From a virus (taxonomy: Duplodnaviria > Caudoviricetes), in the IMG/VR virus record IMGVR_UViG_3300021387_000141, positions 26,191-90,190 of that record: a DNA stretch of 64,000 bases, one strand, 5' to 3'. The notes below the pieces were generated by a model, which was not told the origin of the DNA, made no database searches, and saw nothing but the letters and a program-made list of their open reading frames with translations. The position numbers and the translations under genes were made by a program. Positions 12,113 to 26,558 of the stretch are shown here, one piece after another (the first letter of the stretch is position 1; each line of letters starts with the position of its first letter).

Positions 12113-13291
12113 ATGATTGAACTTTACGACTACCAGGCGGATGCGGTTCGGCGCATGAAAAACGGCTGCATCCTCTGCGGTGGAGTCGGAAGCGGAAAAT
12201 CCAGAACGGCATTGGCCTATTATTTTACACAATACGGCGGAGATCTGAAAAAGCCCAAAAAGCTGAAAGGAGCTCCGCCTCTTTTTATTATCACAACGGC
12301 CCGCAAACGGGACACACAGGAGTGGGAGAAGGAACTGGAACCGTTTAATATTTCGGCGAAGGTGATCGATTCCTGGAATAAGATCAAAGATTACCGTGAG
12401 GTGGAAAATGGGTTCTTTATATTTGATGAGCAGCGTGTCGTGGGATATGGCACCTGGGCAAAAAGTTTCATCCGTATCGCCAGACATAACCGATGGATAC
12501 TTCTTTCGGCCACGCCGGGAGACACCTGGTCTGACTATATACCTGTCTTCATCGCCAACGGATTTTACAAAAACAAATCTGAGTTTGTATCAAGACATGT
12601 TATATGGAGTCACTTCGCCAAGTTTCCAAAGATCGACCATTATGTCGGACAGGCCGTTCTGAACCGTTACCGGAAAGATATTCTGGTGACAATGGACTTT
12701 CATCGGGAAGCGGTGCAGCACCATGAAGATATCTGGTGCGAGTATGACCCACTGATTTATAAAAGTCTGATCAAGACACGCTGGGATCTTTTCAAAGAGA
12801 AACCGATGGAAAACGCCGGAGAGCTTTGTTATTGTCTCAGAAGGGTCGTAAATACGGACGACACCCGTGCACAGGAGATCCAACGCCTGACTAAACAGCA
12901 CCCGAAGGTGATCATTTTCTACAACTTTGACTATGAGCTGGAGCTGCTGAAAGATATTTCGTATACCCAAGGGACTACAGTCGCGGAATGGAACGGGCAT
13001 AAGCATGAGCCGATTCCGGAGACGGACCGCTGGGTCTACCTGGTGCAGTATACCGCCGGATGCGAAGGCTGGAACTGCACGGAAACGGATACGATCATAT
13101 TTTTCAGCCAGAATTATTCTTATAAAGTCATGCTGCAGGCGTCGGGACGCATCGACCGCCTGAACACGCCATTTAAAGATCTTTATTATTATCACCTGAA
13201 GTCGCACAGCAGCATCGACCTGGCGATCCTCAAAGCGCTGAAGCTGAAAAAGAATTTTAACGAAAAAAGTTTCGTCGAAGGATCGCAATAA
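12113..13291 (+). CDS. SF2 (SNF2-like) helicase
   Basis: GVGSGKS, IFDE, LSATP, EGWN, QASGRIDR. Confidence 0.9.
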   Translation: MIELYDYQADAVRRMKNGCILCGGVGSGKSRTALAYYFTQYGGDLKKPKKLKGAPPLFIITTARKRDTQEWEKELEPFNISAKVIDSWNKIKDYREVENGFFIFDEQRVVGYGTWAKSFIRIARHNRWILLSATPGDTWSDYIPVFIANGFYKNKSEFVSRHVIWSHFAKFPKIDHYVGQAVLNRYRKDILVTMDFHREAVQHHEDIWCEYDPLIYKSLIKTRWDLFKEKPMENAGELCYCLRRVVNTDDTRAQEIQRLTKQHPKVIIFYNFDYELELLKDISYTQGTTVAEWNGHKHEPIPETDRWVYLVQYTAGCEGWNCTETDTIIFFSQNYSYKVMLQASGRIDRLNTPFKDLYYYHLKSHSSIDLAILKALKLKKNFNEKSFVEGSQ

Positions 13292-13308
13292 GAACATCTC
13301 CTCATATG
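13283..13308 (+). promoter_or_regulatory. Phage promoter motif copy 1
   Basis: TCGCAATAAGAACATCTCCTCATATG. Confidence 0.7.
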
Positions 13309-13322
13309 AAAGGAGATTAAAA

Positions 13323-13442
13323 ATGAAAAATTTTATAATTGATGCTATCATCGTGATGGCATTTTTATACTTTTTATTGTTGTGCTCCGGTTTATTGCCG
13401 GAGACTTTAAATTGGTTTAATTTAAACCCCAGCCTTTGGTAA
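13323..13442 (+). CDS. 39-aa hydrophobic peptide (not in ORF track)
   Basis: RBS AAAGGAG; MKNFIIDAIIVMAFLYFLLLCSGLLPETLNWFNLNPSLW*; bracketed by promoter and terminator. Confidence 0.7.
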   Translation: MKNFIIDAIIVMAFLYFLLLCSGLLPETLNWFNLNPSLW

Positions 13443-13443
13443 A

Positions 13444-13459
13444 AAGAGCTGGGGCTCTT
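13444..13459 (+). terminator. Hairpin terminator
   Basis: AAGAGC/GCTCTT stem. Confidence 0.55.
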
Positions 13460-13465
13460 AAATTT

Positions 13466-13491
13466 TCGCATAAATAACATATGCTAATATG
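13466..13491 (+). promoter_or_regulatory. Phage promoter motif copy 2
   Basis: TCGCATAAATAACATATGCTAATATG. Confidence 0.7.
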
Positions 13492-13700
13492 GAAAACTAA
13501 TTTGTAGTTTTTTGTAAATATGAGCCGAGTAGCAAGCTGCTGTGAAAGGCTGGAAGTATAGTATGCAGCGGTTTATTTTGTAAATTCCGGTACAAAATAA
13601 ATGCGAATTATCCCGGAATAGTACTGTAATTTATGTGGTTTTAGCAGTACTGGATATATAAACCACAAATGAATAAGAGCCCTTCATGGGCTCTTAAAAT
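13492..13700 (+). ncRNA. Candidate tandem-pseudoknot ncRNA
   Basis: No RBS or usable ORF; promoter upstream, terminator downstream; two clear H-type pseudoknot pairings (see findings). Confidence 0.65.
13675..13695 (+). terminator. Hairpin terminator
   Basis: AAGAGCCC/GGGCTCTT stem. Confidence 0.65.
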
Positions 13701-13701
13701 T

Positions 13702-13727
13702 TCGCAGGATTTGCATCTCCTAAAATG
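13702..13727 (+). promoter_or_regulatory. Phage promoter motif copy 3
   Basis: TCGCAGGATTTGCATCTCCTAAAATG followed by GAGGAC/GTCCTC hairpin. Confidence 0.75.
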
Positions 13728-13767
13728 GAGGACAAAAGTCCTCTAAAAATTTTTTAGGAGAAAAAAA

Positions 13768-14214
13768 ATGGAAAAAATTCAAAATATTGTTGTTTTGATC
13801 GCTGCGGTGATCATTGTGCTGTTTGCGATCTATAAGGTCGCGGAAAACATTGCAGGTTTTATTGCCCGCAAAATTGTAGAAAAGCGTTCACAAAATGAAC
13901 GCATTAACAAAAAGCTTGATTGTCAATGGACGACGATCAAAGAAATAAAAAAAGAAATCCTTGCTCTCCAACAGGAGAATAAGAAACATTGGTCTGTAGT
14001 TAACGGTGTGAATGCCACCGTTCTGCGAACAGAAAAAGCTTTGAAAGAAGCTTATGATCCCGATAATTTTTATACTTATCGGATGAATAAAACAGAATTT
14101 GGAACCTTTCTCGCGAAATGCGAGGAATGGCTCAACCGTCTTGAAAAAGACGGAACAATTGATTTGGAAGATATTAAAGAAAATCTTTCAAAGGAAGAAA
14201 AACCCGCTGAATAA
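13768..14214 (+). CDS. Membrane-anchored coiled-coil protein
   Basis: RBS AGGAG; N-terminal hydrophobic helix. Confidence 0.8.
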   Translation: MEKIQNIVVLIAAVIIVLFAIYKVAENIAGFIARKIVEKRSQNERINKKLDCQWTTIKEIKKEILALQQENKKHWSVVNGVNATVLRTEKALKEAYDPDNFYTYRMNKTEFGTFLAKCEEWLNRLEKDGTIDLEDIKENLSKEEKPAE

Positions 14215-14224
14215 GCAGGTAAAA

Positions 14225-14244
14225 AAGAGTCCGCAAGGACTCTT
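14225..14244 (+). terminator. Repeated terminator AGAGTCCGCAAGG(A/G)CTCT
   Basis: Near-identical copies at 14529-14548 and 19174-19191. Confidence 0.7.
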
Positions 14245-14250
14245 AAATTT

Positions 14251-14276
14251 TCGCGTAAATTACAGCTCCTGTAATG
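14251..14276 (+). promoter_or_regulatory. Phage promoter motif copy 4
   Basis: TCGCGTAAATTACAGCTCCTGTAATG. Confidence 0.8.
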
Positions 14277-14319
14277 AGAGGACATGGATGATCCTCTTAT
14301 TAATTTATAGGAGTAAATT

Positions 14320-14520
14320 ATGAGAAATATTTTAGGTATAATCGCAGGCGCGATTGGATTATTAATAGCTATTTATAATATAAAAAGTTATTATAATGAA
14401 ATTAAAAAGATTCAGGAAACTGATAAATCAATAAAAGATATGGATTTGCAATTAGAAATGTTGCTTAAATCATGTACATTATATGATTATAAAAAAGATA
14501 CGGCAGTATCTGATAAATAA
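14320..14520 (+). CDS. Small membrane protein
   Basis: RBS AGGAG; N-terminal hydrophobic helix. Confidence 0.75.
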   Translation: MRNILGIIAGAIGLLIAIYNIKSYYNEIKKIQETDKSIKDMDLQLEMLLKSCTLYDYKKDTAVSDK

Positions 14521-14553
14521 TTAATAAAAAGAGTCCGCAAGGGCTCTTATTTT

Positions 14554-14579
14554 TCGCATAAATTACAACTCCTATAATG
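14554..14579 (+). promoter_or_regulatory. Phage promoter motif copy 5
   Basis: TCGCATAAATTACAACTCCTATAATG. Confidence 0.8.
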
Positions 14580-14626
14580 AGAGGACACGGATGATCCTCT
14601 TATTATTTTTAAAAAAGGAGATAATT

Positions 14627-15166
14627 GTGGGAATTTGGACTCACACTAATAATATTGTTAAAGTCGATTGCAAAAATAAAATCGATGATTTTTCCGAATA
14701 CTTTGGAAAAGAAATTGTATATATGGTACATTCAGAGAATTACAGGAATAAAAAAACATGGAAAATTGATTGGGATCGATATGATCTCGCTAAGAAAAAA
14801 GAATTTGAAAGCCATAAAAAACTATGGGATGAATATAAAGTGCATCCCGAATTGTTTCTGCCTATGGGCAGTGAAGGAAGTCTGCATTTAAAAAGCAGGC
14901 TGCTAACAAGAGTGAAAAATTCTTTATACCCTTACCGGTATAAAGTTGAAATTTATGGTGATCTTCGCGATCACTATGATGTAGAGGAAGTTATTGACTG
15001 CATCCGAAATGGAGTCAATAAATTAAAAGCGCGGCATGACTGTTGTATATCAACAGAGGCCAACGTTCGTAATTATTTGGACGGAATGGCATCGTATAAA
15101 TTTGAAGATGCTTATTTTCGTAATAAAGATTTCTATAAAATCAGGGAGCCTTATAAAGGATCCTGA
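14627..15166 (+). CDS. Hypothetical phage protein
   Basis: RBS AAAGGAG with GTG; WTH, PMGSEGSL and IYGDLRD segments. Confidence 0.75.
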   Translation: MGIWTHTNNIVKVDCKNKIDDFSEYFGKEIVYMVHSENYRNKKTWKIDWDRYDLAKKKEFESHKKLWDEYKVHPELFLPMGSEGSLHLKSRLLTRVKNSLYPYRYKVEIYGDLRDHYDVEEVIDCIRNGVNKLKARHDCCISTEANVRNYLDGMASYKFEDAYFRNKDFYKIREPYKGS

Positions 15167-15212
15167 TTATGAAAGCCCTAACAAGGGCTATTTATTTTTT
15201 TCTGAGGAGCCA

Positions 15213-15416
15213 ATGAAGAGAGTTTATTTGGTATTGTACAGTCCGTTTTGGAATGGAATGATTGCACCGGAATGTATTGAAAAAGCATTCGCATCTAAAC
15301 ATATGGCAGAAGAATATATTCATGATCAGTGTATTAAATGTGGCTGCGACAGATCCTCTTATGAAATTTACAGTATTAATGTAGAAAATTCATCGCGATA
15401 TGAACAAAGCCTTTAA
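15213..15416 (+). CDS. Hypothetical protein
   Basis: RBS GAGGAG; start moved from 15036. Confidence 0.7.
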   Translation: MKRVYLVLYSPFWNGMIAPECIEKAFASKHMAEEYIHDQCIKCGCDRSSYEIYSINVENSSRYEQSL

Positions 15417-15418
15417 TA
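15393..15418 (+). promoter_or_regulatory. Phage promoter motif copy 6
   Basis: TCGCGATATGAACAAAGCCTTTAATA, inside the end of the upstream gene. Confidence 0.7.
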
Positions 15419-15552
15419 GAGAAAGAGAAAGGTCGTAAGGACGCATCAAAGGACTGAACACCCATTGATGAACGGATCACTGTCAAAGTTCAGGGCAGTA
15501 TTCGTACAAGAGGGAATTACGGCCCCTTGAGTATCAGGTACTTTTATTTTTT
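15418..15552 (+). ncRNA. Candidate kissing-loop ncRNA
   Basis: ORF-less stretch between promoter copies 6 and 7; three hairpins with complementary loops. Confidence 0.5.
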
Positions 15553-15555
15553 CAA

Positions 15556-15581
15556 TCGCGATTTAAACAGCTCCTTTAATG
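15556..15581 (+). promoter_or_regulatory. Phage promoter motif copy 7
   Basis: TCGCGATTTAAACAGCTCCTTTAATG plus AGAGAGAC/GTCTCTCT hairpin. Confidence 0.8.
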
Positions 15582-15625
15582 AAGAGAGACAAGCAGTCTC
15601 TCTAATTTTTTAAAGGAGATAAAAA

Positions 15626-15862
15626 ATGAAAAAGATTAATTTAATTTATGGATGCATTCTGCATCCAGAAAAAAATGTCGTAAAAATTATTGCCGGCAAA
15701 ATTCTGTCGGCTTTGATTGGATACAAAATTTGGGGCGTTTTTGCCTCAAACAAACGGTGCTATGCATTTGGCACCAAAAAACAGGCGATTAATTTCGCCA
15801 AAGCAATCTGGGATTGTAATGGACACAATCCTGTAATAGTAGTGGAACAACACTACTATTAA
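15626..15862 (+). CDS. Hypothetical protein
   Basis: RBS AAAGGAG. Confidence 0.75.
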   Translation: MKKINLIYGCILHPEKNVVKIIAGKILSALIGYKIWGVFASNKRCYAFGTKKQAINFAKAIWDCNGHNPVIVVEQHYY

Positions 15863-15876
15863 ATAAAAATTTAAAA

Positions 15877-15897
15877 AGGAGTCTTACAAAGACTCCT
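15877..15897 (+). terminator. Repeated terminator AGGAGTCTTACAAAGACTCCT
   Basis: Identical copy at 16172-16192. Confidence 0.65.
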
Positions 15898-15912
15898 GAA
15901 TTTCGTGTAGAT

Positions 15913-15938
15913 TCGCAAAATTTACAGCTCCTTTAATG
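15913..15938 (+). promoter_or_regulatory. Phage promoter motif copy 8
   Basis: TCGCAAAATTTACAGCTCCTTTAATG; downstream leader near-identical to copy 7. Confidence 0.8.
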
Positions 15939-15980
15939 AAGAGAGACAAGCAGTCTCTCTAAATTTTTAAGGAGATAAAA

Positions 15981-16166
15981 ATGGAAGTTTTAAAAACAGA
16001 ACAGCTCCCTGATGGGAGCAAAAAGTATTATTTTGTGGATGGTACATCGACCATCCTGTCTAAGGAATTTCTCGCACGTTGCGAGAAAATTAGTCGGAAA
16101 AACCCGTCCGTTGGACGGAAGAACGCGAATTGCCCCAGAATGAGGGCAATAGTTGTAAATAAATAA
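15981..16166 (+). CDS. Hypothetical protein
   Basis: RBS AAGGAG. Confidence 0.7.
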   Translation: MEVLKTEQLPDGSKKYYFVDGTSTILSKEFLARCEKISRKNPSVGRKNANCPRMRAIVVNK

Positions 16167-16200
16167 AAATAAGGAGTCTTACAAAGACTCCTAAAATTTT

Positions 16201-16209
16201 TGTTATACT
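16201..16209 (+). promoter_or_regulatory. Extended -10 host-type promoter element
   Basis: TGTTATACT (TGn-TATACT) upstream of an RBS. Confidence 0.45.
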
Positions 16210-16241
16210 TGTTTCATAGAAAAGGAGCAAAAGATGTAGAA

Positions 16242-16523
16242 ATGATTAATAAATGGCTATGTTGTTTACTTGTTTTAATTGCATTTGGGTTAGGAGCATT
16301 GCTTGTTGCAATATATCATAAAAAAGCATATGAAAAAGGCGTTCAGGATGGAAAGAATCTTGTCATGAATGAATGGGTTCAATATATGACCCCGGAAGAA
16401 GTGATAGATATTTGCCATGAATTTTTGGAAGATGATGATCATTGTCCTTTACTATTAATTCGACCGGATAAATACGATTATATTGATGGTCATGGTGAAG
16501 GCATACAAAAGATATTTCAATAA
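16242..16523 (+). CDS. Membrane-anchored hypothetical protein
   Basis: N-terminal hydrophobic helix; start uncertain. Confidence 0.65.
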   Translation: MINKWLCCLLVLIAFGLGALLVAIYHKKAYEKGVQDGKNLVMNEWVQYMTPEEVIDICHEFLEDDDHCPLLLIRPDKYDYIDGHGEGIQKIFQ

Positions 16524-16593
16524 ACCTCATACTCACTGATCTTTAGAACAGCTCGCATTACGCGGGCTTTTTTATTTAATCGAAAGGAAACAA

Positions 16594-17448
16594 ATGACTA
16601 GTTTTATCTCTATGCTGGGCGGCGCGGATGCCAAATCGATCGAAGCCAAATTCAATGATATTTCTGAGAATCTGAACGTGCTTTCTTCCAGAATTGCTGA
16701 GCTGGATGCAGTTGTGACTAAGCTGGACAAATACACGATGAATCTGGAAGCCGGTATTCGCAATAACGAGATCTGCTGCACTGAACTGAAGCAAAAATAC
16801 AGCAGCGAAGGCCTGACCAAGCGGGTTGATGACGTCGATCGCATGGTCCGGTATTTCCAATCCTCTCACGGCAAGGTACTGAATGATATTCGGGACCTGA
16901 AAAAGGAACTCCATGGTTTGTACGGACGCCAGTGCCCGCCCCCACAGGAAGAACTGGATAAATCCATCGCGAAGGACAACAGCGAGATCCTGCTGAGTGA
17001 TATTATTACGAACCTGATTCCGGAATACCATGAACGCGGATGTGTATTAAAAGCCATGAAACGAAATGGTTGGAAGACCGTTTCCGATCTGCTGGCGGTT
17101 CCTTATTCTCAGCTTCCGGACAGGCCATGGCTCGGTAAGAAAGTCCTTGCAGTTTTTCAGTGCATTTACGAACAATACGGGAAGATCGACCCGAAGGCCG
17201 TATCGGATGATATTCCGGACACGGATCTGAAAAAGGCAATCTTTGACATGGAAGGCAGCACCAAGACCAAATCCAGGGTCTATAACATGCTGAAAAAAGA
17301 GGGCATTTTTACGCTTGAACAGCTGGCGCAGAAATCCTTGCTGCAGTTATGCACGGATCATCCCGATTTTCGTAAAGGCCGTGCAGGCGATCTTTTGTCG
17401 GCTGTTTATACCAAATACATCTGGACCGAAGGAGAAAAGGATGCGTAA
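16594..17448 (+). CDS. Coiled-coil protein with two RNAP alpha-CTD-like domains
   Basis: RGCVLKAMKRNGWKTVSDLLAVPYSQL...LGKKVL and SRVYNMLKKEGIFTLEQLAQKS. Confidence 0.6.
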   Translation: MTSFISMLGGADAKSIEAKFNDISENLNVLSSRIAELDAVVTKLDKYTMNLEAGIRNNEICCTELKQKYSSEGLTKRVDDVDRMVRYFQSSHGKVLNDIRDLKKELHGLYGRQCPPPQEELDKSIAKDNSEILLSDIITNLIPEYHERGCVLKAMKRNGWKTVSDLLAVPYSQLPDRPWLGKKVLAVFQCIYEQYGKIDPKAVSDDIPDTDLKKAIFDMEGSTKTKSRVYNMLKKEGIFTLEQLAQKSLLQLCTDHPDFRKGRAGDLLSAVYTKYIWTEGEKDA

Positions 17449-17689
17449 TTTTTTCAAAGGCTTTTGGGAATATCTCAAAAACTGGGCATGGTCTTTGTTT
17501 GCCATGGCTTTATGGATGTTCGTCGGGATCGTGATCAGCTTGTTTTGTGTCTGGTACGGAATTATCGGCACCGGACCGGTGTTTATGATTGACCCCAAAT
17601 TCATTGATTTTCTCCGGGAAGCTGCCGACAAAAGTGAGGAGCTCCGAAAGAAACGTTTAGAAGAGGAAATTGAAAATGAAGAAAATTAA
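17441..17689 (+). CDS. Membrane protein
   Basis: RBS GGAG; long hydrophobic segment; start moved to 17441. Confidence 0.7.
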   Translation: MRNFFKGFWEYLKNWAWSLFAMALWMFVGIVISLFCVWYGIIGTGPVFMIDPKFIDFLREAADKSEELRKKRLEEEIENEEN

Positions 17690-17900
17690 AAGCTATTTAA
17701 GAAACTGGATGGATTTTCTGACTATGAGCTTTCTATTGTTTGTCCTAAGTTTCATGGACTTCATCACTGGATTTTTTGCTGCACTTACCAACAATCAGGG
17801 CTGGTGGTATCGTATAGTTCATATTTATAAAAATATGGGTGATCGTATGTATGCGGTTATGGAAAAGGAGAAGGAAGATGGAAACGATGAAACCATTTGA
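17676..17900 (+). CDS. Membrane protein
   Basis: RBS GAGG; hydrophobic segment. Confidence 0.7.
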   Translation: MKKIKSYLRNWMDFLTMSFLLFVLSFMDFITGFFAALTNNQGWWYRIVHIYKNMGDRMYAVMEKEKEDGNDETI

Positions 17901-18285
17901 TTTTTGGGTCGAATACGGTCCTGAAGGCAAACTTCAGACAATCAGCTTTATGGATATTTCATTGACCGATGCTTTATCGGCGCTCCTTTTTTTGAAAAAC
18001 ACGGAACCCTGTGATTCAGAACCCAACCCGGAAGCCCGTCCGAAATCGATTTTTGAAAACCCGATGGTGGCGGTTAAAGACTACATCGGAAAGTATCCCG
18101 TTTGCTATTTTACGCCGCAGGGTCAGTATTTTGAAGTCAAGACTTATTTACCGAAAGATAAAGGCTGGATCTGCCATTTGATGACCTATACCGGAAACGA
18201 TAACGACGGTTATCGCTGGTACCATGCCGATGACAGCATTTATATTTACGATGCTTATCTCACATTGGTTCGTAAGGAGGGGTAA
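17878..18285 (+). CDS. Hypothetical protein
   Basis: RBS AAGGAG; coupled. Confidence 0.7.
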   Translation: METMKPFDFWVEYGPEGKLQTISFMDISLTDALSALLFLKNTEPCDSEPNPEARPKSIFENPMVAVKDYIGKYPVCYFTPQGQYFEVKTYLPKDKGWICHLMTYTGNDNDGYRWYHADDSIYIYDAYLTLVRKEG

Positions 18286-18569
18286 TGGAACCTACAATGA
18301 TTGCTGTATCCGGCGAGGAATCCCGGATCATTTCGATCGAAGATCAATATTATGTGATCACCGATTACAAAACTGCCGCGGACATGGAAGAAGAAAACTG
18401 GCACGCATTCAAAGTCGTGCGCTTTAATAATTCCTGGTGGCAGCCGCAGCTGAACGAGCGGTATTTGATCAACCGGGAAACGCTGGAGATCACGGACGAT
18501 CCCCGGGAATATTATGAAGAGCCGGTTATTCCGGATGAACCTGTTGAAGAAGAGGAGCCCAATGAATAG
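18285..18569 (+). CDS. Acidic hypothetical protein
   Basis: RBS AAGGAGG; TAATG overlap. Confidence 0.75.
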   Translation: MEPTMIAVSGEESRIISIEDQYYVITDYKTAADMEEENWHAFKVVRFNNSWWQPQLNERYLINRETLEITDDPREYYEEPVIPDEPVEEEEPNE

Positions 18570-18873
18570 TTATCTGATCGCAGCCTGTGTTCCGTTAGCT
18601 GTTTTGGTATTAGAACTGTTAAGTGAACAATACAACCTTCGGAAAAAGAATCGTGAAATATCGGAAGATATTTTTAATATCAGTTCTGAAATGACAGATT
18701 TGAGAATGTTTTATGACCGGCAGCAGAAAGAGCTGACGAAATTGCGCGCAGAGCTGGAAAAAGTCAGCAATGAACTCGTTGGGACGAAAGAGATGATCAC
18801 CCAGATGCAGGAGAACTACGGCCGGTTTTTCGGCGACGCGCAGATCGAAGGACAGTATAAACTTCACTTTTAA
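18562..18873 (+). CDS. Membrane-anchored coiled-coil protein
   Basis: RBS GAGGAG; hydrophobic N-terminus then heptad pattern. Confidence 0.7.
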   Translation: MNSYLIAACVPLAVLVLELLSEQYNLRKKNREISEDIFNISSEMTDLRMFYDRQQKELTKLRAELEKVSNELVGTKEMITQMQENYGRFFGDAQIEGQYKLHF

Positions 18874-18874
18874 T

Positions 18875-18900
18875 TCGCAGGATTTACAAAGCCTATATTG
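18875..18900 (+). promoter_or_regulatory. Phage promoter motif copy 9
   Basis: TCGCAGGATTTACAAAGCCTATATTG plus GAGCAGA/TCTGCTC hairpin. Confidence 0.75.
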
Positions 18901-18946
18901 AGCAGACATGGATGATCTGCTCTTTATTTTTAAATAGGAGAAAAAA

Positions 18947-19165
18947 GTGGAAACTATTGTTGTAGTTTGTGCTGTTGTCGCTACTGCGACATTTGTTGTT
19001 AAAACAATCGTTTCCTGGATTAAATCCGGGAAATACGAAAAGGAAGCGGCTTTGCGCCGCAAAGAAAATGAAACGCGAAGGGCGACCTTCGCAGAAGCCA
19101 GGCTGAACCGCCTGGAAGAAAAACTGAAAGAAAAAGAAAATGTCAATGAGGACATTGATTGGTAA
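18947..19165 (+). CDS. Small membrane-anchored protein
   Basis: RBS AGGAG with GTG; hydrophobic N-terminus. Confidence 0.75.
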   Translation: METIVVVCAVVATATFVVKTIVSWIKSGKYEKEAALRRKENETRRATFAEARLNRLEEKLKEKENVNEDIDW

Positions 19166-19247
19166 ATGAAAAGAGAGTCCGCAAGGGCTCTTATTTTTTT
19201 CAATCGCTGGCTGACCACAAGTCACCAGCCACTAAAGGAGAAATCTT

Positions 19248-19409: not shown

Positions 19410-19412
19410 AGA

Positions 19413-19438
19413 TCGCGATATGCGCATGGCCTCTAATG
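19413..19438 (+). promoter_or_regulatory. Phage promoter motif copy 10
   Basis: TCGCGATATGCGCATGGCCTCTAATG plus GAGGAGAG/CTCTCCTC hairpin. Confidence 0.7.
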
Positions 19439-19480
19439 AGGAGAGATAAACTATATTACAACTCTCCTCTGGAGGAAAAA

Positions 19481-19876
19481 ATGACATCAATGTATAAAGT
19501 AGTTGTATCCACTATTGGATACAATCCAAATAATGAATGCCCAGAAAATCTCTGGGTAAATGTGAGCGATCCTAAACGGATCGTATCAAATAAAGCGCTT
19601 GGGCGTTTAAATGCCCAAGTGATAAAATTGAACAATGAAGTCGAAAGACTTCAATCTACTAATGGGTATTATGTACCCAGAAGAGACTACTTTTTCTACG
19701 TCGAAAAAGACGTAGAACATATAGGTAGGATTCAAATCCGCTATGAAGATAATGGCGGATACACTTACGAACCAGAGTACGAGTTGGTTATTACTGCCAA
19801 CTCGGCTAGACAGGCCCGAAGATGGGCCTTGAAGTGGACATTATTTAAAGTCCATAAATGGGAGATAGAGGATTAA
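19481..19876 (+). CDS. Hypothetical protein
   Basis: RBS GGAGG; start moved to 19481. Confidence 0.75.
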   Translation: MTSMYKVVVSTIGYNPNNECPENLWVNVSDPKRIVSNKALGRLNAQVIKLNNEVERLQSTNGYYVPRRDYFFYVEKDVEHIGRIQIRYEDNGGYTYEPEYELVITANSARQARRWALKWTLFKVHKWEIED

Positions 19877-20050
19877 TTTCCTCACTCCCTATTTTTTTTT
19901 CAACTTCACCTCTCATTAAAAGCACATACAGCAAGTCGTTATTTTGGAAGAGATGGCCGGGGAACTCCCGGCGATGCTTTGTCCGGAGAGGTGAGCATTG
20001 AGGAGCATGAAACATTGCTCCTCTTTTTTTTCTTAGTGAAAGGAAACAAA

Positions 20051-20530
20051 GTGGAATATTCTAAAAAAGAGATCACAGCAAAAGATAAGATCAAAAAATT
20101 AATGGACTATGTACAAGCTGCGCAGGAGTTTACAAACCAATTGATCAATTATTTAAAGGGGATCGACTGCATGACTCACAACAGCGAAGGCGTTTACGCG
20201 GATGAGATTGAAGAAAGCGAACTGCACGGTTTTGACTGGGATGACGGTCACGCTTATTTAGCTACGGATTTTACCATTGATGAACTTCCGGAAGCTTTAG
20301 CCTCTATCAGCAATGACATGGATGAAAAAATACGGGATCTTGAAGAAAAAGATCGAATGAATGACGCATATCGAAAGATCTATACTTATTTTAAAAATGA
20401 TCCGTCCTTATGTTTCAGTTCTGTTTCAGAAACAAAACTGAAGGAATTTTATCATGTCTGCCTGAACATTGCCGAAATGTCGGAAAGCAAATTCATTGAA
20501 AATGTTTTTGAAGCGCAGAAAGGAAAATAA
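20051..20530 (+). CDS. Hypothetical protein
   Basis: RBS AAAGGA with GTG; start moved from 19979. Confidence 0.7.
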   Translation: MEYSKKEITAKDKIKKLMDYVQAAQEFTNQLINYLKGIDCMTHNSEGVYADEIEESELHGFDWDDGHAYLATDFTIDELPEALASISNDMDEKIRDLEEKDRMNDAYRKIYTYFKNDPSLCFSSVSETKLKEFYHVCLNIAEMSESKFIENVFEAQKGK

Positions 20531-20532
20531 GT

Positions 20533-20964
20533 ATGTCCATGTTTTTTGTAGTGCAGTGCAACGGCAAATTCGATAAAAAAGATCACCTCTGGGATGACGG
20601 CATTACTTTATTCCAGGAACCTGATCATATGACCAAAAGAGAGGTCCTTGAATTCATTGATATTCTCAAAGCAGACATGCCGAACCTGGATAAGTCAACC
20701 TGCCCGGACGTGCAGGAGCTGCAGTGCCGGGAACCGGACACCGGGATGCGTCTGGTGATTTTACTGGTGAAAGCCAAGGGCTATCAGCAGGCGGCGGAAA
20801 AAGCGCGGAAATTCTGTGATATTTGGTATAAGCCGAAAAAGACCCCGCGTAAAAAGCAGTTCACGGCCAAAGAACTGCTCAATGCTATTCCGAAAGGGAT
20901 CCGGCAGGCTTCGCAAGGGCAATATGATTTTCCCTATTATTCCAAACGCCTGAACTGGAGATGA
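20533..20964 (+). CDS. Hypothetical protein
   Basis: Operonic, RBS AAAGGA. Confidence 0.75.
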   Translation: MSMFFVVQCNGKFDKKDHLWDDGITLFQEPDHMTKREVLEFIDILKADMPNLDKSTCPDVQELQCREPDTGMRLVILLVKAKGYQQAAEKARKFCDIWYKPKKTPRKKQFTAKELLNAIPKGIRQASQGQYDFPYYSKRLNWR

Positions 20965-20965
20965 A

Positions 20966-21433
20966 ATGAACCTTGATAAACTGAATGAATTATTTCCGAT
21001 AAACGATGAGACGGTCAATATTGACTGGACTCACAAATCAACTTCGACCGCTCCCGAGGGTTATTCCAAAACAAATGGTAATGTCTATTCTCCGTCTGAT
21101 AAATGGACAGCTGAACCGATTTCGGAAAAAAACTTTGAAATCTGTCATCCGGTCCAGGTTATGTCCGGAGAACAAAATACTGAAGTATTGAATAATCCGC
21201 TGACCTGGGAAGAGATCCAGAATTATGTCGGCTGTCCGGTTTGGACGGTGCCGGATAACAGTAAAGAATTACCGGCATGGAGTTTACTTGTCAGAACGCA
21301 GAACATTTTTGATGCCGGCAGCTGGGATACAAAGAAAACGGTCGTGATCACTTCGATAATTTCGTTCGATCGGGTCGTTGATTTTTGCAAGTATCGGTTT
21401 TACAAAGAACCACAGCCGGTCGATAAAAGGTGA
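20966..21433 (+). CDS. Hypothetical protein with internal PLTWEEIQ..CPVW motif
   Basis: RBS GGAG; motif shared with 9201-9449. Confidence 0.7.
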   Translation: MNLDKLNELFPINDETVNIDWTHKSTSTAPEGYSKTNGNVYSPSDKWTAEPISEKNFEICHPVQVMSGEQNTEVLNNPLTWEEIQNYVGCPVWTVPDNSKELPAWSLLVRTQNIFDAGSWDTKKTVVITSIISFDRVVDFCKYRFYKEPQPVDKR

Positions 21434-22002
21434 TCAACATGAATGAAGAGATAAATTGGAATGTTCCGTACGCGTCATTTTTTAATGCCGGTGAATGGAA
21501 CGCGACGATCGAAATAGACGAACTCAATGAAAATGCAATAAAGGATATTTTTGATATGAACAATAATGATGTGAAATCTTACACTTTTAAATTGGTTTAC
21601 CCATGGTGTAAACAGGATGAAGAAAAAACGACTGAACCCCTTGGGAAAGTCAAACTTGAAAATGCGAATCAGGCGATGCTCCGATTTTTACAGAGCAACG
21701 GCTTTGTGATCTACAAAGATATTTACGACGCTTTCGGCATGAAGTACAAAAAAGCAGACCCGGAAGTCTTTCGTTTTTACTGCGGGGATTACAAAGCTTA
21801 CCAGCTTTATCTTCGGAAACTGATCGCCGTCGGGAAAGAACGTGTGACCGGCGCGGAAGCGAATGCTGACGGCCTGCACCGGGACGCTGAACGTTATCTT
21901 AACCTTGAGCAGCGCGAACGGGAAAAAGCGAAACGATGGAACGAAGACGCGAACCGGCTGCAGGATTTTCTGGATTTTACTTATGAAAAGGAAGAGGATT
22001 AA
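21430..22002 (+). CDS. Hypothetical protein, YCGD paralog 1
   Basis: FRFYCGDYKAYQLYL. Confidence 0.7.
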   Translation: MINMNEEINWNVPYASFFNAGEWNATIEIDELNENAIKDIFDMNNNDVKSYTFKLVYPWCKQDEEKTTEPLGKVKLENANQAMLRFLQSNGFVIYKDIYDAFGMKYKKADPEVFRFYCGDYKAYQLYLRKLIAVGKERVTGAEANADGLHRDAERYLNLEQREREKAKRWNEDANRLQDFLDFTYEKEED

Positions 22003-22373
22003 TGATAGAAAAAGATATTTACATCAAGCTGACGCTTCAGATCGAAGATGAATCAAAAGATGAGCAAAATCTGCGCGAAGCATTTTCCGAACTGATCAAA
22101 CGCCGGAAGCGCTGCGGATTTTTGATCGCCCATGACCTGGATGCTCTGTTGGATCTGGAATCGGAGAATCCTTATATTCTCTACTGCGGTGATAAGAAGC
22201 TTTACCGCGAATGGATCGATTTACAAATTAAACTTTGTTCAATACGAAAATCATATTTTAGGGATTATTATAAACAATACCCATGGCTTTTGGAAAACAC
22301 GATAAAAGAAATTTCCGATGAAGAAACACAGATGAGAATGGCTTTAAAAGAACTGGATAAGGACGAAGAATGA
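22002..22373 (+). CDS. Hypothetical protein, YCGD paralog 2
   Basis: ENPYILYCGDKKLYREW. Confidence 0.75.
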   Translation: MIEKDIYIKLTLQIEDESKDEQNLREAFSELIKRRKRCGFLIAHDLDALLDLESENPYILYCGDKKLYREWIDLQIKLCSIRKSYFRDYYKQYPWLLENTIKEISDEETQMRMALKELDKDEE

Positions 22374-22765
22374 TCGAAAAAACTTTTACCTTTGATAACA
22401 ATACCATGCCGATGGTAAACATCAAGATCGATTTTGACATTGTGGGCTATGATCCTGCCGATGACAAACTTTGTGAAGGTTTTTCAAAATTGATGCAGCT
22501 CCGCAATAACAGAAAGTTTTTGATCATGAAGGATCTGAAAGACTGTCTTAATCTGAAATCTATTGAAAATCCTTATATTTTCTACTGCGGTGATAAAAAA
22601 ATTTATCGCCAATGGGCCGATAATGAACTGCAGATGCTTTTAGTTGAACTTAGAATGAATGGTGTTAATCATTGGAATTCCTGTTTTAAAGATTATGAAA
22701 TGAGAAAAAAACTCGATCTTATTCGATCAGCTATAATAGCTGATGAATTGGACAAGGAGAACTGA
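22370..22765 (+). CDS. Hypothetical protein, YCGD paralog 3
   Basis: ENPYIFYCGDKKIYRQW. Confidence 0.75.
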   Translation: MIEKTFTFDNNTMPMVNIKIDFDIVGYDPADDKLCEGFSKLMQLRNNRKFLIMKDLKDCLNLKSIENPYIFYCGDKKIYRQWADNELQMLLVELRMNGVNHWNSCFKDYEMRKKLDLIRSAIIADELDKEN

Positions 22766-23304
22766 TGAAAAAAGCATATATTGTTCTGCTGTTTATCATT
22801 TTTGTGATGCTCCTGACCGGATGTGATAGCTTTTACACGCCCAGTGAAAAGGAAGTCAAAAGTCAGATGAATATTGCGGACCGCATGGTCGAAGCTCAGC
22901 CAATCCCTCAGGATATCGAATACTCGCTGGAACGCTATAACCTGATCCGGCGGGCTTATTGGGTGAACGGACAGCGGGAGAAGGCTAACTCCTTCCCCTG
23001 TATCGTTTCCAAACCGCTGGGTTATATTCTGCTCTTCACCGAATCCGGTTCCATCGTCGGGAATTTCATCGTTGACGGAAAAGTATCTTCCCTGAATGCA
23101 TATTTAACACCGGACAGTGAATACTATTCCACCACCAGCAGTTTTAATGCCTGGCTGGCAGATGTGGATGGAAGCTACGGCCAAAACGACTCCGGCATTT
23201 TCTTCTTCACGCCGGACGGTAAATACATCGAATGGACCGGGATCTATTTATATTCCGATATCCCGTTCGAAGTCGAAACGACTTTGTTGACCATAGGAAA
23301 GTGA
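22765..23304 (+). CDS. Lipoprotein
   Basis: Signal MKKAYIVLLFIIFVMLLTG-C with lipobox LTGC. Confidence 0.8.
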   Translation: MKKAYIVLLFIIFVMLLTGCDSFYTPSEKEVKSQMNIADRMVEAQPIPQDIEYSLERYNLIRRAYWVNGQREKANSFPCIVSKPLGYILLFTESGSIVGNFIVDGKVSSLNAYLTPDSEYYSTTSSFNAWLADVDGSYGQNDSGIFFFTPDGKYIEWTGIYLYSDIPFEVETTLLTIGK

Positions 23305-23305
23305 T

Positions 23306-23698
23306 ATGAATAAATTCTTGTATACTTTACTGCTCGTTATTCTGGTGCTTGCCCTCGCGGCAGGCTTTTATTTTACCTGTTTCCCTCAGGGACGTGCTAT
23401 GTGGAACACCTACCAAAACTCTCTTCATAAAATCGACGACCGGACCACGTATGAACAGCGCAAGCTGGTCGAAGACACCTGCCGTTCGATGATCGCATCC
23501 TGGAATGCGGATATTCTGATCTATAAACAATATCGTAAGTCCGACTCGCCCGAAAAGCAGAGTTGGGCGGAAGAAGCCCTGATGCGTGCCAACAAAACGG
23601 CCGTGACTTACAACGAGTATATTCTCAAGAACAGCTATGTCTTCCAGGGCAACATCCCTTCTGATATTTATGCTGTCATCACTCCGATCACGGATTAA
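23306..23698 (+). CDS. Membrane-anchored protein paired with the lipoprotein
   Basis: N-terminal hydrophobic helix; starts right after the lipoprotein stop. Confidence 0.75.
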   Translation: MNKFLYTLLLVILVLALAAGFYFTCFPQGRAMWNTYQNSLHKIDDRTTYEQRKLVEDTCRSMIASWNADILIYKQYRKSDSPEKQSWAEEALMRANKTAVTYNEYILKNSYVFQGNIPSDIYAVITPITD

Positions 23699-23707
23699 GG
23701 AGAAACA

Positions 23708-24082
23708 ATGAAAGCGACTGACTTGCAAGGTATTGAACTGTCTTATAACGAAAACGGTGAGATCGAATTTCTGGTGTCCTATGGTTACGGCGCCGGTTGG
23801 CTGACCTGGAACGGTTATGATTACCGCCTGATATTTGACAAGCGTATCATCGATTATCTGCGTGAGCATCAGGGCAATATTAATCGAATAAATGATGATG
23901 AAGTCAAAGCATTTTTCAAGCAGCTCGGCTACTATGACGATGACCACTATTTATATTTCGGCGGCTTTTGGAAATGTCAAATCGAATCTCTTCCGAAAGG
24001 AACCATATTTCGGCTTGACGAGTATGATGGATCGGAAAGCGTTGAAATTTATGATCCCGATTATTCTTTTATGGAAGTTTAA
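23708..24082 (+). CDS. Hypothetical phage protein (VSYGYGAGW motif)
   Basis: RBS AAGGAG. Confidence 0.75.
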   Translation: MKATDLQGIELSYNENGEIEFLVSYGYGAGWLTWNGYDYRLIFDKRIIDYLREHQGNINRINDDEVKAFFKQLGYYDDDHYLYFGGFWKCQIESLPKGTIFRLDEYDGSESVEIYDPDYSFMEV

Positions 24083-24100
24083 TATGAATAAGGAAGGTAC

Positions 24101-24580
24101 ATGGAATACACACTGCAGAATTGTATTTTAAACGCAAGCAGACTGAAACGCCGTGAACATGTTCTCAGCGTCCTGACGGACAATGATATTCTGAACTTCA
24201 CCGACCTTGTGAACCGGCCGCTCCCGACCAAAGGCCTCTGGAAATCGGAGTTCGCATATTTGCGGGATCTTCGGCAGAAAGAAGCCGCGCTTCAATCCAT
24301 GTTCCACCACAGCGAGATCGAATTGAAACGGACGCTGGATGGATATTTTACCAAACATGAGGCCAGCCGGGTATTCCACGTTTTGACGGCAAATAAAATC
24401 TCGTCGGTACGCTTACTGGCCAGTGCCAGCATCAGCAGACTCCGGGATATTTACGGCATCGGCCCCAAGTCGATTGATATTTTGATGAAACTCAAAACCG
24501 ATCTCTGGAATCGGGCGGAAGAAGACGCAAAGTATAAAGCGCAGTACACGCAAACTGCCGTGTCTTTGACCGCCTTCTGA
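24101..24580 (+). CDS. Protein with alpha-CTD/HhH-like domains
   Basis: ASRVFHVLTANKISSVRLLASASISRLRDIYGIGPKSIDIL. Confidence 0.6.
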   Translation: MEYTLQNCILNASRLKRREHVLSVLTDNDILNFTDLVNRPLPTKGLWKSEFAYLRDLRQKEAALQSMFHHSEIELKRTLDGYFTKHEASRVFHVLTANKISSVRLLASASISRLRDIYGIGPKSIDILMKLKTDLWNRAEEDAKYKAQYTQTAVSLTAF

Positions 24581-24662
24581 GCTTCATACTCACTGATATT
24601 TCAAACCAAGGCCCGTGAGATTTGCACGGGCTTTTATTTTTTAAAGGAGAACAACAAATACT

Positions 24663-24845
24663 ATGCCGGGAGATCCCTATCGCAAAGAACAACTGGTATT
24701 AAAAATTTACAAGTATCTGGATGAAGGATATTTGGTCAGCGAGATCGCTGAAATTCTGGACATGCCGGAAGAAAAGATCTGGCAGATCATTGAGTCCGTT
24801 GAAAAGGAAGACGAACCGAAAGGTTATGAATATTATCGAAGGTAA
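24663..24845 (+). CDS. Small HTH DNA-binding protein
   Basis: LDEGYLVSEIAEILDMPEEKIWQII (sigma region 4-like). Confidence 0.7.
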   Translation: MPGDPYRKEQLVLKIYKYLDEGYLVSEIAEILDMPEEKIWQIIESVEKEDEPKGYEYYRR

Positions 24846-24848
24846 GCC

Positions 24849-25118
24849 ATGAACACATGCTACTGGAACTGCCTCAGCTGGAACAAGCTCACTTCTCCTG
24901 AAATGATCGACAAAGATATTCTGATCATTTACCGCGGACCGGACTTTGATGATATTCATCTGGCCCCGCAGAAAGTCGTTCAGATCATCGGGACCGATCA
25001 TGTGGAGAACGAGCGGGTCCTCATTGTTTATGATCACGATGAGGATGATATTTTTCTGATCACCCGGGAGGGCAAAGGCCGTCTCTGGGAGACCTATCAG
25101 ATCATGGAAGGGTTTTGA
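24849..25118 (+). CDS. Hypothetical protein
   Basis: Operonic. Confidence 0.7.
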   Translation: MNTCYWNCLSWNKLTSPEMIDKDILIIYRGPDFDDIHLAPQKVVQIIGTDHVENERVLIVYDHDEDDIFLITREGKGRLWETYQIMEGF

Positions 25119-25121
25119 TTT

Positions 25122-25322
25122 ATGACACAGCCGATCAGTAATGTTATTTCCGGTGTGAAATGCTGCATCAGTGATTGCGGGACCGCTTCCCACTGCAAGA
25201 GTTGTCCGTACGACTCTTTAGATCCCGAAAAGGAATCCTGCGAGGATGCGCTGGCCCGTGACATTTTAGTATATTTAACAAACTATGAAGAACTTTTAGA
25301 AAAAGTTCCTTGTACGGAGTAA
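25122..25322 (+). CDS. Cys-rich protein, paralog A
   Basis: CCISDC..CKSCPY..C..LARDIL. Confidence 0.7.
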   Translation: MTQPISNVISGVKCCISDCGTASHCKSCPYDSLDPEKESCEDALARDILVYLTNYEELLEKVPCTE

Positions 25323-25324
25323 GA

Positions 25325-25606
25325 ATGGCAATCAGAAAAGATCTTGATCAAGTGATCGAAGGATTTTTACAATGTGAATATCGAGACTGCACCTGTACCG
25401 CCTGTCCTTATAACGAATCAGACGATTGTACGGCCGAACTGCGGGATGATATTTGGTATTACCTGCATCAGTTATATTTGCAGGAACAACCGACGACGAT
25501 CGAACAGCCGCCGCTTCCGGGTCTGGAAGCAGAACCCGAGACGTTTGAAGACAAGCTGGAACGGATCGCGGATATTTTGAAAGAGAAACAACATGAACGA
25601 AGATGA
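25325..25606 (+). CDS. Cys-rich protein, paralog B
   Basis: CEYRDCTCTACPY..C..LRDDIW; RBS GGAG. Confidence 0.7.
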   Translation: MAIRKDLDQVIEGFLQCEYRDCTCTACPYNESDDCTAELRDDIWYYLHQLYLQEQPTTIEQPPLPGLEAEPETFEDKLERIADILKEKQHERR

Positions 25607-25772
25607 TGAACTGGATCCGCTGGTCCGACAATATTTTGATGCACTTCGGAAGATTGGTGCGCTGTTCATAGAAGCCGCCGATAATTTTCAGAATGACTGT
25701 CCTGAACCTGACGATGTTGTCGAAGTTTATGAAGTGAAACGGGAGCTTCCGGAGGGTAAAAAAGAATCGTAA
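25593..25772 (+). CDS. 59-aa acidic protein (not in ORF track)
   Basis: MNEDDELDPLVRQYFDALRKIG...ELPEGKKES*. Confidence 0.55.
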   Translation: MNEDDELDPLVRQYFDALRKIGALFIEAADNFQNDCPEPDDVVEVYEVKRELPEGKKES

Positions 25773-25779
25773 GGACGCG

Positions 25780-26070
25780 ATTTTCTGTGCCCACTTTTGT
25801 GGCCAGAAAGAAGCCAATGCCCACTTTTTTTGAAAACTTGATGATTTTCAGCCTTGGCCAAAATGCAAAATGGCCAGAAAAAGTGGGCACGTGGCCAGTT
25901 TTTTTTAAAAAGTGGGCACGGATTTTTTAGCAATTTCCCGAGTAAAATCGGGCAAAAAAGGGCTTTCTGCCCACTTGCCCACTTTTTTTTCTTATTTAAT
26001 GCGCAAAGTAAAAAAATTAAAATATATAATAAATAGAGAAAAAAACTGGCCATCTGGCCACAGCCCATTT
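25780..26070. repeat. TGCCCACTT/TGGCCA repeat field, putative replication origin
   Basis: Six TGCCCACTT (4 forward, 2 reverse), six TGGCCA, A/T tracts, non-coding. Confidence 0.6.
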
Positions 26071-26106
26071 TTTTACTGATAAAAGGCCCCTCCTTCTGAT
26101 TTTTCA

Positions 26107-26115
26107 TGCTATACT
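26107..26115 (+). promoter_or_regulatory. Extended -10 host-type promoter element
   Basis: TGCTATACT upstream of RBS AGGAGG. Confidence 0.5.
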
Positions 26116-26142
26116 TTGAAAACAGAAAGGAGGTCGAATTCA

Positions 26143-26439
26143 TTGCCCGGTTATTTTTACGATCCTGATTACGGAGCCCGTTTTATGGATCAGTTGGAAG
26201 AAGTGTATGATCACCACGGAAACTGTATTTTAACAGAATGCTGCGGCGTCTATTGGATGTGGGATCCGTATCATGAAAACTATATTTGTCCGAAGTGCGG
26301 AAGAACGGTGTCACGCAGCTCATTTTTGAAAAACTACGTTCCGGCATACGGCCCGGAATGTTTCAGCTGTCGGACCAACTTTCCGCAGTGTGTTATTTGT
26401 CATAAGAACCATCAGAAAGAGTTAGATGATAGGGAATAG
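26143..26439 (+). CDS. Cys-rich zinc-finger protein
   Basis: TECCG, CPKCG, CFSC, CVIC; RBS AGGAGG with TTG start. Confidence 0.7.
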   Translation: MPGYFYDPDYGARFMDQLEEVYDHHGNCILTECCGVYWMWDPYHENYICPKCGRTVSRSSFLKNYVPAYGPECFSCRTNFPQCVICHKNHQKELDDRE

Positions 26440-26525
26440 GTCATAGGGACTGGGGAATAGTTTTAATAAGATGACAGCGAAGCTGTCTTCCTATTTTTAA
26501 CTAGCCCCTAATCCCTAACCCCTAA
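26430..26525. repeat. Inverted heptamer-array element (STRR-like)
   Basis: TAGGGAA TAGGTCA TAGGGAC TGGGGAA ... GACAGC/GCTGTC hairpin ... TAGCCCC TAATCCC TAACCCC. Confidence 0.6.
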
Positions 26526-26532
26526 AAAGCTC

Positions 26533-26558
26533 TCGCGAAATTTACATCCCCTCTTATA
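26533..26558 (+). promoter_or_regulatory. Phage promoter motif copy 11 (RNAP operon)
   Basis: TCGCGAAATTTACATCCCCTCTTATA. Confidence 0.7.

Follow-up and report, generated by a model that had tools for sequence, protein, structure and literature searches.

YonO, the RNA polymerase (RNAP) of the Bacillus prophage SPbeta, is the sole characterised enzyme of its type in a temperate Firmicute phage. Its transcription serves one late operon and begins at a single start site, and how YonO-type polymerases find their promoters, and whether they need a factor to do so, was left open by Forrest et al. (PMC5467207). The phage P23-45 encodes two single-chain, two-barrel RNAPs, gp64 and gp96, each of which has its own repeated promoter motif; mapping by ONT-cappable-seq and ChIP-seq gave 14 AT-rich and 7 GC-rich sites (PMC10770324). 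Promoters specific to a phage polymerase are already known, and P23-45 is the precedent for the two-barrel class. In the literature we searched, we found no published promoter for the polymerase family that bears helix-turn-helix (HTH) modules. Here we describe a 26-base signal repeated in the IMG/VR viral record IMGVR_UViG_3300021387_000141, a gut phage. From sequence comparison, we consider this signal likely to be the promoter at which the single-chain two-barrel RNAP of 939 aa that the phage itself encodes starts transcription. The record is complete (90,190 bp, with a terminal overlap), and the window that we analysed comprises its bases 26191-90190, a stretch of 64,000 nucleotides; coordinates below are those of the window unless given as genome coordinates.

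A gap-free motif confined to one strand

The motif follows the pattern TCGCR-N7-CA-N4-CT-N4-T. An exact search of the window returns all eleven copies that an earlier note on this DNA had listed, every one on the + strand (Table 1), where dinucleotide-preserving shuffles yield 0.23 matches on average and at most 2, while a scan allowing one mismatch adds matches at chance level only. The whole genome holds 20 exact copies, again exclusively on the + strand, and a weight matrix adds three near-copies of the same orientation, all upstream of the window (genome 13942, 14098 and 22187). The column consensus of the 20 exact copies is TCGCRaaAtttaCAnctCCTnTAATG followed by ARGAGA, with G at position 26 in 16 of them. 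A de novo search of the intergenic DNA on both strands, scored by log-odds, ranks this motif first at ~21 bits and the ribosome-binding region second, and it returns no second promoter-like class. The log-odds version was used in place of one based on raw match counts, which was swamped by A/T-rich windows. A megablast of the region against phage records gave no match.

The genes of the phage lie nearly all on the + strand, and the motif copies are confined to two stretches (genome 10973-22187 and 39473-52723). Most copies are intergenic, that is, between open reading frames (ORFs), and about half sit directly after a terminator-like hairpin; the region has 65 hairpins of this kind where 20 would be expected. 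Gap-free and co-oriented, the copies stand upstream of a ribosome-binding site (RBS) and its ORF, or of RNA genes, and in typical units the start codon is found 38-81 nt from motif position 1. The placement at unit starts proposed in the earlier note is thus borne out. The units so headed consist of small ORFan genes and several units that have no ORF. The note had further assigned the motif to accessory genes and to the polymerase's own operon; both assignments stand, yet they are too narrow, since the motif also heads RNA-only units and the replication module with its DNA polymerase-primase, NrdD and helicase (copies at genome 19625 and 22187, both upstream of the window). A core-only matrix agrees that no copy precedes the structural genes, save for one degenerate copy inside the tail-gene module, and neither this matrix nor the de novo search finds a late promoter in the structural module. 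Two of the motif-headed units, 13466-13700 and 15393-15555, have no RBS or usable ORF, end in terminators and look like stand-alone phage RNAs. Scans of the window against Rfam (at the gathering threshold) and for tRNAs (with ARAGORN) gave no match to the RNA-only units.

Homologues of the polymerase occur in ~250 phage records, from phages of Arthrobacter, Gordonia, Streptomyces, Curtobacterium, Microbacterium and Rhodococcus to the Lactococcus 1706 group and Faecalibacterium phage FP_oengus; at least 199 prophage loci carry the polymerase as well. We transferred the weight matrix to relatives and refined it within each genome tested, a procedure that yields close to zero matches in shuffles. 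All the polymerase-bearing phages and prophages tested, from Firmicutes and Actinobacteria alike, carry the motif with the same geometry and on one strand only, including 6 of 6 complete or near-complete relatives. The refined matrices find 16 copies in FP_oengus, 12 in Lactococcus phage 1706, 7 in Arthrobacter phage Mudcat, 13 in Streptomyces phage Rima (59% GC) and 21 in G001, a 90-kb IMG/VR phage that is the closest relative, all on the + strand; overall, counts run from 7 to 23 per genome in more than 100 genomes. The motif of Rima has nearly the same sequence as that found here (TCGCA..TTACA..CCTATAGTGAGAC). Positions 1 and 5 are among those that vary, and in FP_oengus the CT is shifted by one base. 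The invariant positions and lack of gaps claimed in the earlier note hold in 20 of 20 copies of this genome, but TCGCR proves dispensable in G001, where a terminator T-tract often stands in place of the TCGC block. This suggests that the core is ttACA-N4-CCTnTAATG and that TCGCR is an upstream element.

Strand bias and position are kept in larger samples. Among 25 IMG/VR loci there are 87 matches on the + strand and 9 on the - strand, and among 80 prophage loci from GTDB Clostridia (mostly Lachnospiraceae, Ruminococcus and Oscillospiraceae) the corresponding numbers are 127 and 4, with a copy ~950 nt upstream of the polymerase in 74 of the 80. Across 86 distinct polymerase-operon promoters, the conserved block extends from position 2 to ~36 and has sharp edges; C2-G3-C4, C13-A14, C19-T20, T22 and A24-T25-G26 are near-invariant. 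When the family-level pattern is run over five cultured host genomes (2.7-6.5 Mb), one-strand clusters appear in the contigs of the RNAP loci, and elsewhere matches are at chance level only. Two of these genomes have a second motif cluster, and these two additional clusters may be other prophages. The restriction of motif clusters to prophages speaks against a host sigma regulon. The cultured strains with prophages that carry both polymerase and motif (loci L058, L075, L080, L119 and L127) are Cuneatibacter caecimuris DSM 29486, [Ruminococcus] torques ATCC 27756, Enterocloster lavalensis KCTC 15153, Pseudoflavonifractor sp. 524-17 and Muriventricola aceti. In Lactococcus 1706 (L006), the stretch immediately upstream of the polymerase gene is without the standard motif, and three copies of a ~35-bp repeat (CTATCACGAAAAAAC...) occupy positions ~1640-2000 there.

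The single-chain polymerase and its operon

The only polymerase-like gene in the genome, which we propose as the reader of the motif, is the 939-aa ORF of the operon behind copy 11 (Table 1). From its modelled structure and domain matches, this ORF is a two-barrel RNA polymerase with HTH modules, and it is predicted to synthesise RNA. Its GADFDGD loop contains the DxDGD metal-binding sequence by which two-barrel RNAPs are recognised. Foldseek with the AlphaFold2 (AF2) model of the protein (pLDDT 73.9) retrieves QDE-1 (E 2.9e-6), RDR2, P74 gp62 (E 6.6e-4) and P23-45 gp96, together with largest-subunit structures of cellular RNAPs; the TM-scores against these structures are low (0.2-0.3), so that the core alone is held in common. 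In the same model the C-terminal HTH forms a three-helix bundle. The gene order of the operon is likewise annotated in FP_oengus, Mudcat and Rima. The same assignment of the polymerase has previously been made by HHpred, with both HTH ends noted and no promoter mentioned (bioRxiv 10.1101/842583).

Other candidate readers were tried and rejected. A separate phage sigma factor finds no footing in a six-frame search of the genome, which gives no match to Sigma70_r2 and gives sigma-region-4-like matches only inside the RNAP ORF. The tape measure of 5,224 aa was considered as the site of a second polymerase, for which P23-45 is the precedent, and dismissed because it has no DxDxD and no polymerase match in Pfam, PHROG or solved structures; furthermore, the motif also occurs in relatives whose tape measures are ordinary. 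A search of the genome for a T7-like RNAP gave no match, with a search control that was uninformative. The earlier note had proposed a promoter of the phage RNAP that is not a sigma-A promoter, and this proposal is supported by the co-occurrence of motif and RNAP across phyla, by the confinement of the motif to prophages and by the lack of a sigma gene.

Table 1. Motif copies and features of the polymerase operon, in window coordinates
Feature	Position	Strand	Remarks
Copy 1	13283..13308	+	exact match; overlaps the final 9 nt of the helicase ORF; very short leader
Copy 2	13466..13491	+	exact match; after a terminator-like hairpin; no RBS or ORF behind, unit appears RNA-only
Copy 3	13702..13727	+	terminator just upstream; hairpin from position 25-26; ORF 13768-14214 starts at motif position 67
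Copy 4	14251..14276	+	terminator upstream; 5' hairpin 14276-14299; ORF 14320-14520
Copy 5	14554..14579	+	terminator 14529-14548 upstream; 5' hairpin behind; ORF ends at 15166
Copy 6	15393..15418	+	position 26 is A; no obvious ORF behind; orthologous copy in G001 at 72915
Copy 7	15556..15581	+	5' hairpin 15583-15603; ORF 15626-15862
Copy 8	15913..15938	+	closest to consensus; 5' hairpin 15940-15960; ORF 15981-16166
Copy 9	18875..18900	+	5' hairpin 18900-18923
Copy 10	19413..19438	+	heads a long operon, 19436 to ~26439; long-loop hairpin with a compensatory change relative to G001
Copy 11	26533..26558	+	heads the endonuclease-exonuclease-RNAP operon; position kept in nearly all relatives
Degenerate copy	45045..45070	+	inside the tail-gene module; TCGTG and G at position 19, two invariants broken
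Operon behind copy 11	26831..30797	+	PHROG and Pfam matches
Endonuclease-like ORF	26831-27121	+	operon behind copy 11
Cas4-type exonuclease	27093-27656	+	operon behind copy 11
RNAP, 939 aa, single-chain two-barrel (predicted)	27646..30465	+	phrog_4291, 1084 bits, full length; weak Pfam RdRP
N-terminal HTH of RNAP, residues ~113-149	27982..28092	+	Pfam HTH_23, HTH_28, Sigma70_r4; six-frame Sigma70_r4_2
Catalytic loop GADFDGD, residues 545-551	29278..29298	+	invariant in 17 homologues
C-terminal sigma-region-4-like HTH of RNAP, residues ~897-935	30334..30450	+	Sigma70_r4_2 28.3 bits (cut-off 25.7), HTH_38
105-aa ORF	30480-30797	+	last in the operon behind copy 11

All homologues of the polymerase share a highly conserved N-terminal sequence, HYGxxRxSGRYPWGSG. 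Three proteins of the head module (32893-33456, 35809-36768 and 36785-37609) have unrelated bodies and a common N-terminal DUF7211 peptide, ELxHWGxxGMKWG, which is like the polymerase N-terminus only in its xHYG start. The interval that separates the polymerase operon from the packaging genes includes a G/C-rich segment (30798-30900) in which C and G occur in runs. This segment resembles a cos-like genome end and has a strong hairpin behind it (30947-30974). The tape measure (46008-61682) implies an extremely long tail; it contains a DUF2268 zinc-protease-like motif near residues 1010-1044, and ~3,000 of its residues are without a family match. Before the window, a 409-aa ORF on the minus strand (genome 9312-10541) sits where FP_oengus has its integrase; the phage is probably temperate.

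Start site, proposed mechanism and rival readings

In 18 of 22 copies a stable hairpin starts at motif position 25-28, usually at 26. These 5' hairpins vary in sequence between copies; in the subset that can be aligned with the closest relative, every one of the 71 cells is paired and compensatory changes are found at 4 of the 9 pairs, a degree of covariation matched by 0-1 of 500 shuffles. In FP_oengus (L001), a tRNA-like gene with an odd anticodon loop, detected by ARAGORN at 2909-3006, begins at motif position 27, and the promoter there seems to fire directly into it. A tRNA-like RNA also lies behind the near-copy at genome 14098 (12,092 nt before the window start); compared with that at 47647 in G001, it is 97% identical from position 27 onwards, while the two promoters are only 50% identical, both fitting the consensus. 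At the other sites orthologous between this phage and G001, the motif is 69-88% identical and the 60 bp upstream of it 43-67%. Since the hairpins, the FP_oengus tRNA-like gene and the 97%-identical RNA all begin there, we infer that the start site (+1) is at or next to G26. The 5'-terminal hairpin is probably a stabiliser of the mRNA. Several of these hairpins (13726-13745, 15583-15603, 15940-15960 and others) have a T-tract behind them and are scored as intrinsic terminators by a consensus scan; they may attenuate transcription, insulate the unit from host read-through or do no more than stabilise the RNA.

The motif resembles sigma-A (sigma-70) promoters in its TnTAAT block and in a TTTACA-like block that recalls the -35 hexamer. 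It differs from them in the spacing of these blocks, in its unconserved -11 A and in having no hexamer at -35. The TTTACA-like block (positions 9-14) is only 5 bp from the -10-like block (positions 20-25), compared with 16-18 bp for sigma-A, and the positions 17 bp upstream of T20, where the -35 element would be, carry 0.0-0.5 bits. The would-be -11 A, at position 21, is present in 8 and lacking in 12 of the 20 copies here; it is also lacking in 16 of 16 copies in FP_oengus, which read CTTTATGG, and in 82 of the 86 polymerase-operon promoters of relatives, 74 of which have T at this position. Neither a TG extension nor a -35 hexamer is found on the motif. Sigma-70 consensus sites are not enriched in number (38 against 42 expected), and none of them coincides with the motif. 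Furthermore, a sigma-A start, 6-7 nt past the hexamer, would land within the conserved hairpin and within the FP_oengus tRNA-like gene. The two departures from sigma-A that the earlier note had pointed out, a would-be -10 mostly without its second A and too short a spacing, are therefore confirmed.

If G26 is +1, the promoter would consist of the blocks TCGCR (-25 to -21), ACA (-14 to -12) and CCT-nTAAT (-8 to -1). These would be centred ~11 bp apart, or about one helical turn, and would thus present themselves on the same face of the DNA, where the HTH modules may bind. With an N-terminal HTH and a C-terminal sigma-region-4-like HTH fused to it, the polymerase would probably need no separate sigma factor to find this promoter. 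The sigma-4-like module may recognise the -35-like TTTACA, and the DNA would melt at the A/T-rich nTAAT just before +1, as it does in T7-type promoters. Initiation at G26 would give RNAs with the purine-rich leader GARGAGA, which in most copies would fold at once into the 5' hairpin. The promoter would in this way drive ~22 units: those of early accessory genes and of several non-coding RNAs, as well as the replication module and the polymerase operon itself. The placing of that operon behind its own promoter type would create positive feedback. A more ambitious version, which we advance tentatively as somewhat less likely than not, is that the RNAP is self-sufficient: with a sigma function built in (a two-barrel core, a sigma-region-4-like HTH and more HTHs), it alone would read a ~35-bp promoter (-25 to +10), enter with the DNA and run the early and middle programme and its own gene independently of the host enzyme, an arrangement that would be common to a large group of siphophages and prophages from gut Clostridia, from lactococci and from Actinobacteria.

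Several considerations weigh against the phage polymerase as reader of the motif. With the polymerase gene behind its own promoter type, the first synthesis of the enzyme needs either virion-delivered enzyme or host transcription, and prophage induction, which cannot depend on a virion protein, would need host transcription. The sole hint of virion delivery is the label 'structural protein' given by the depositors to orf75 of Lactococcus 1706, which would fit delivery with the virion. The same label in ReqiPoco6 was rejected as an independent hint, having been copied from 1706 by similarity. A capsid-targeting tag common to the RNAP and the DUF7211 proteins is at most a lead, as the tag profile scores the RNAP N-termini at <=6 bits, no better than shuffled sequences, and the resemblance is not statistically significant. 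The structural genes here are without any recognisable promoter, and YonO, as the one characterised comparator, transcribes late genes (PMC5467207). Positions 20-25 read TATAAT or TATTAT in many relatives, which host holoenzyme could in principle use. Finally, the hairpin and T-tract behind the motif also resemble an intrinsic terminator, a feature that the proposed mechanism leaves unexplained. As for the late genes, read-through from the polymerase operon over the joined genome ends is possible.

The best surviving rival, which we nevertheless judge unlikely, is that the motif is an early or middle promoter for the host RNAP, with TnTAAT as its -10 and with a phage-encoded or virion-delivered factor on TCGCR and ACA (compare T4 MotA/AsiA), the phage polymerase then transcribing the late genes, like YonO, from one or a few unrepeated promoters. 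This would suit the likeness of positions 20-25 to TATAAT in Mudcat, 1706, Rima and G001, and with a -10 at these positions TCGCR would fall near -30. It would also suit the position of the polymerase gene, directly upstream of the motif-less structural module across the genome end, and the service of one late operon by YonO (PMC5467207), and it meets no chicken-and-egg problem at prophage induction. However, such a promoter would have to work with the -11 A missing at the frequencies given above and with no TG extension or -35 hexamer, and its transcripts would start inside the hairpin and the FP_oengus tRNA-like gene. Our six-frame searches detected no separate sigma or candidate factor, and among the group-wide phams no conserved transcription factor besides the RNAP has been reported (bioRxiv 10.1101/842583). 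That Streptomyces phages and phages of gut Clostridia have the identical motif points, moreover, to a reader that is carried by the phage.

We give far less credence to the motif being no promoter but a protein-binding or recombination element, either a repressor operator or a boundary that promotes cassette shuffling. In Arthrobacter phages of cluster AU, related to the phage studied here, the Giantsbane preprint describes an intergenic repeat of 32 bp that flanks rearranged genes; it was read as a recombination boundary and not tied to a polymerase (bioRxiv 10.1101/2020.01.10.891226). Set beside our motif by description only, that repeat is similar in occupying the intergenic gaps of a small-gene region that lies downstream of the genes for the tail, and it is probably the same element. 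Here, too, copies bracket small, fast-evolving ORFan genes. Against an operator or boundary stand the asymmetry of the motif, its co-orientation with genes and its fixed distance before RBS and start codons. Conservation is position-specific over 35 bp, with variable positions between the blocks, which is consistent with readout by a protein and not with homology-driven recombination. Virulent relatives without a lysogeny module carry the motif too, RNA-only units and a tRNA-like gene follow it, and no separate sigma-A promoter is there for an operator to control. That the repeats are a functionless by-product of recent duplication of gene cassettes is suggested by near-identical leaders in a few neighbouring units (15556 with 15913, and 14251 with 14554), but it is in practice refuted by the unrelated flanks and downstream genes of most units and by the retention of the motif, and not of its flanks, in genomes whose polymerases are 33-50% identical.

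Significance and comparison with known systems

We therefore return to the phage's own polymerase as the likely reader of the motif. Should the self-sufficient version be true, no promoter of a YonO-like polymerase would have been defined before this one, and the pair would make up a compact orthogonal transcription system. The phage group offers a clear test case, as it combines fused DNA-binding modules and a sharp-edged, near-invariant candidate promoter with cultured hosts and isolates. The systems at hand include Lactococcus 1706, FP_oengus and phages of Arthrobacter, Streptomyces and Gordonia, as well as lysogens such as [Ruminococcus] torques ATCC 27756, and promoter recognition by this little-studied enzyme family is now directly testable. 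If confirmed, the promoter would account for early gene expression in hosts as far apart as Streptomyces and Clostridia, and a repeat formerly taken as a recombination boundary would gain a new reading. It would also inform models of how sigma-like recognition joins a two-barrel core and make a small orthogonal pair of polymerase and promoter available for Gram-positive bacteria.

In its architecture, the motif is similar to T7/SP6-type promoters, which are gap-free over ~23-35 bp and have an upstream specificity region, an A/T-rich block before +1, a G at +1, a purine-rich start and many co-oriented copies. The version of the motif in phage 1706 (ACACTATAGTAGAA) appears to resemble the SP6 core. 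The T7/SP6-type RNAPs, on the other hand, have a right-hand fold that is unrelated to the two-barrel enzyme encoded here. What this system would have in common with the virion RNAPs of N4 and crAss-like phages is a phage polymerase that serves early genes without reliance on the host. In N4, the promoters are DNA hairpins that lie upstream of the start; here the hairpins are downstream and variable in sequence, and no inverted repeat is found within motif positions 1-25.

Nearer in enzyme class are the Thermus phages P23-45 and P74-26, of which P74-26 gp62 and P23-45 gp96 are among the structural matches to the RNAP model. P23-45 also has a giant tape measure; it has two polymerases, however, one of them fused to the tape measure, whereas this phage has one, and its tape measure is without a catalytic motif. 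The P23-45 promoters are unrelated in sequence to our motif, and HTH modules are not mentioned in their description (PMC10770324).

YonO itself is similar in being a single polypeptide of ~100 kDa, with the DxDGD loop of multisubunit RNAPs, from a temperate Firmicute phage (PMC5467207). The contrast that the earlier note drew with YonO is correct in that YonO serves late genes; the comparison is nonetheless one between distant enzymes, which are alike only in fold class and catalytic motif, with BLAST finding no homologue in a Bacillus phage. Unlike YonO, with its one late operon, the enzyme described here has fused HTH modules and is accompanied by a motif that recurs many times per genome, before early and middle genes and before the polymerase's own gene.

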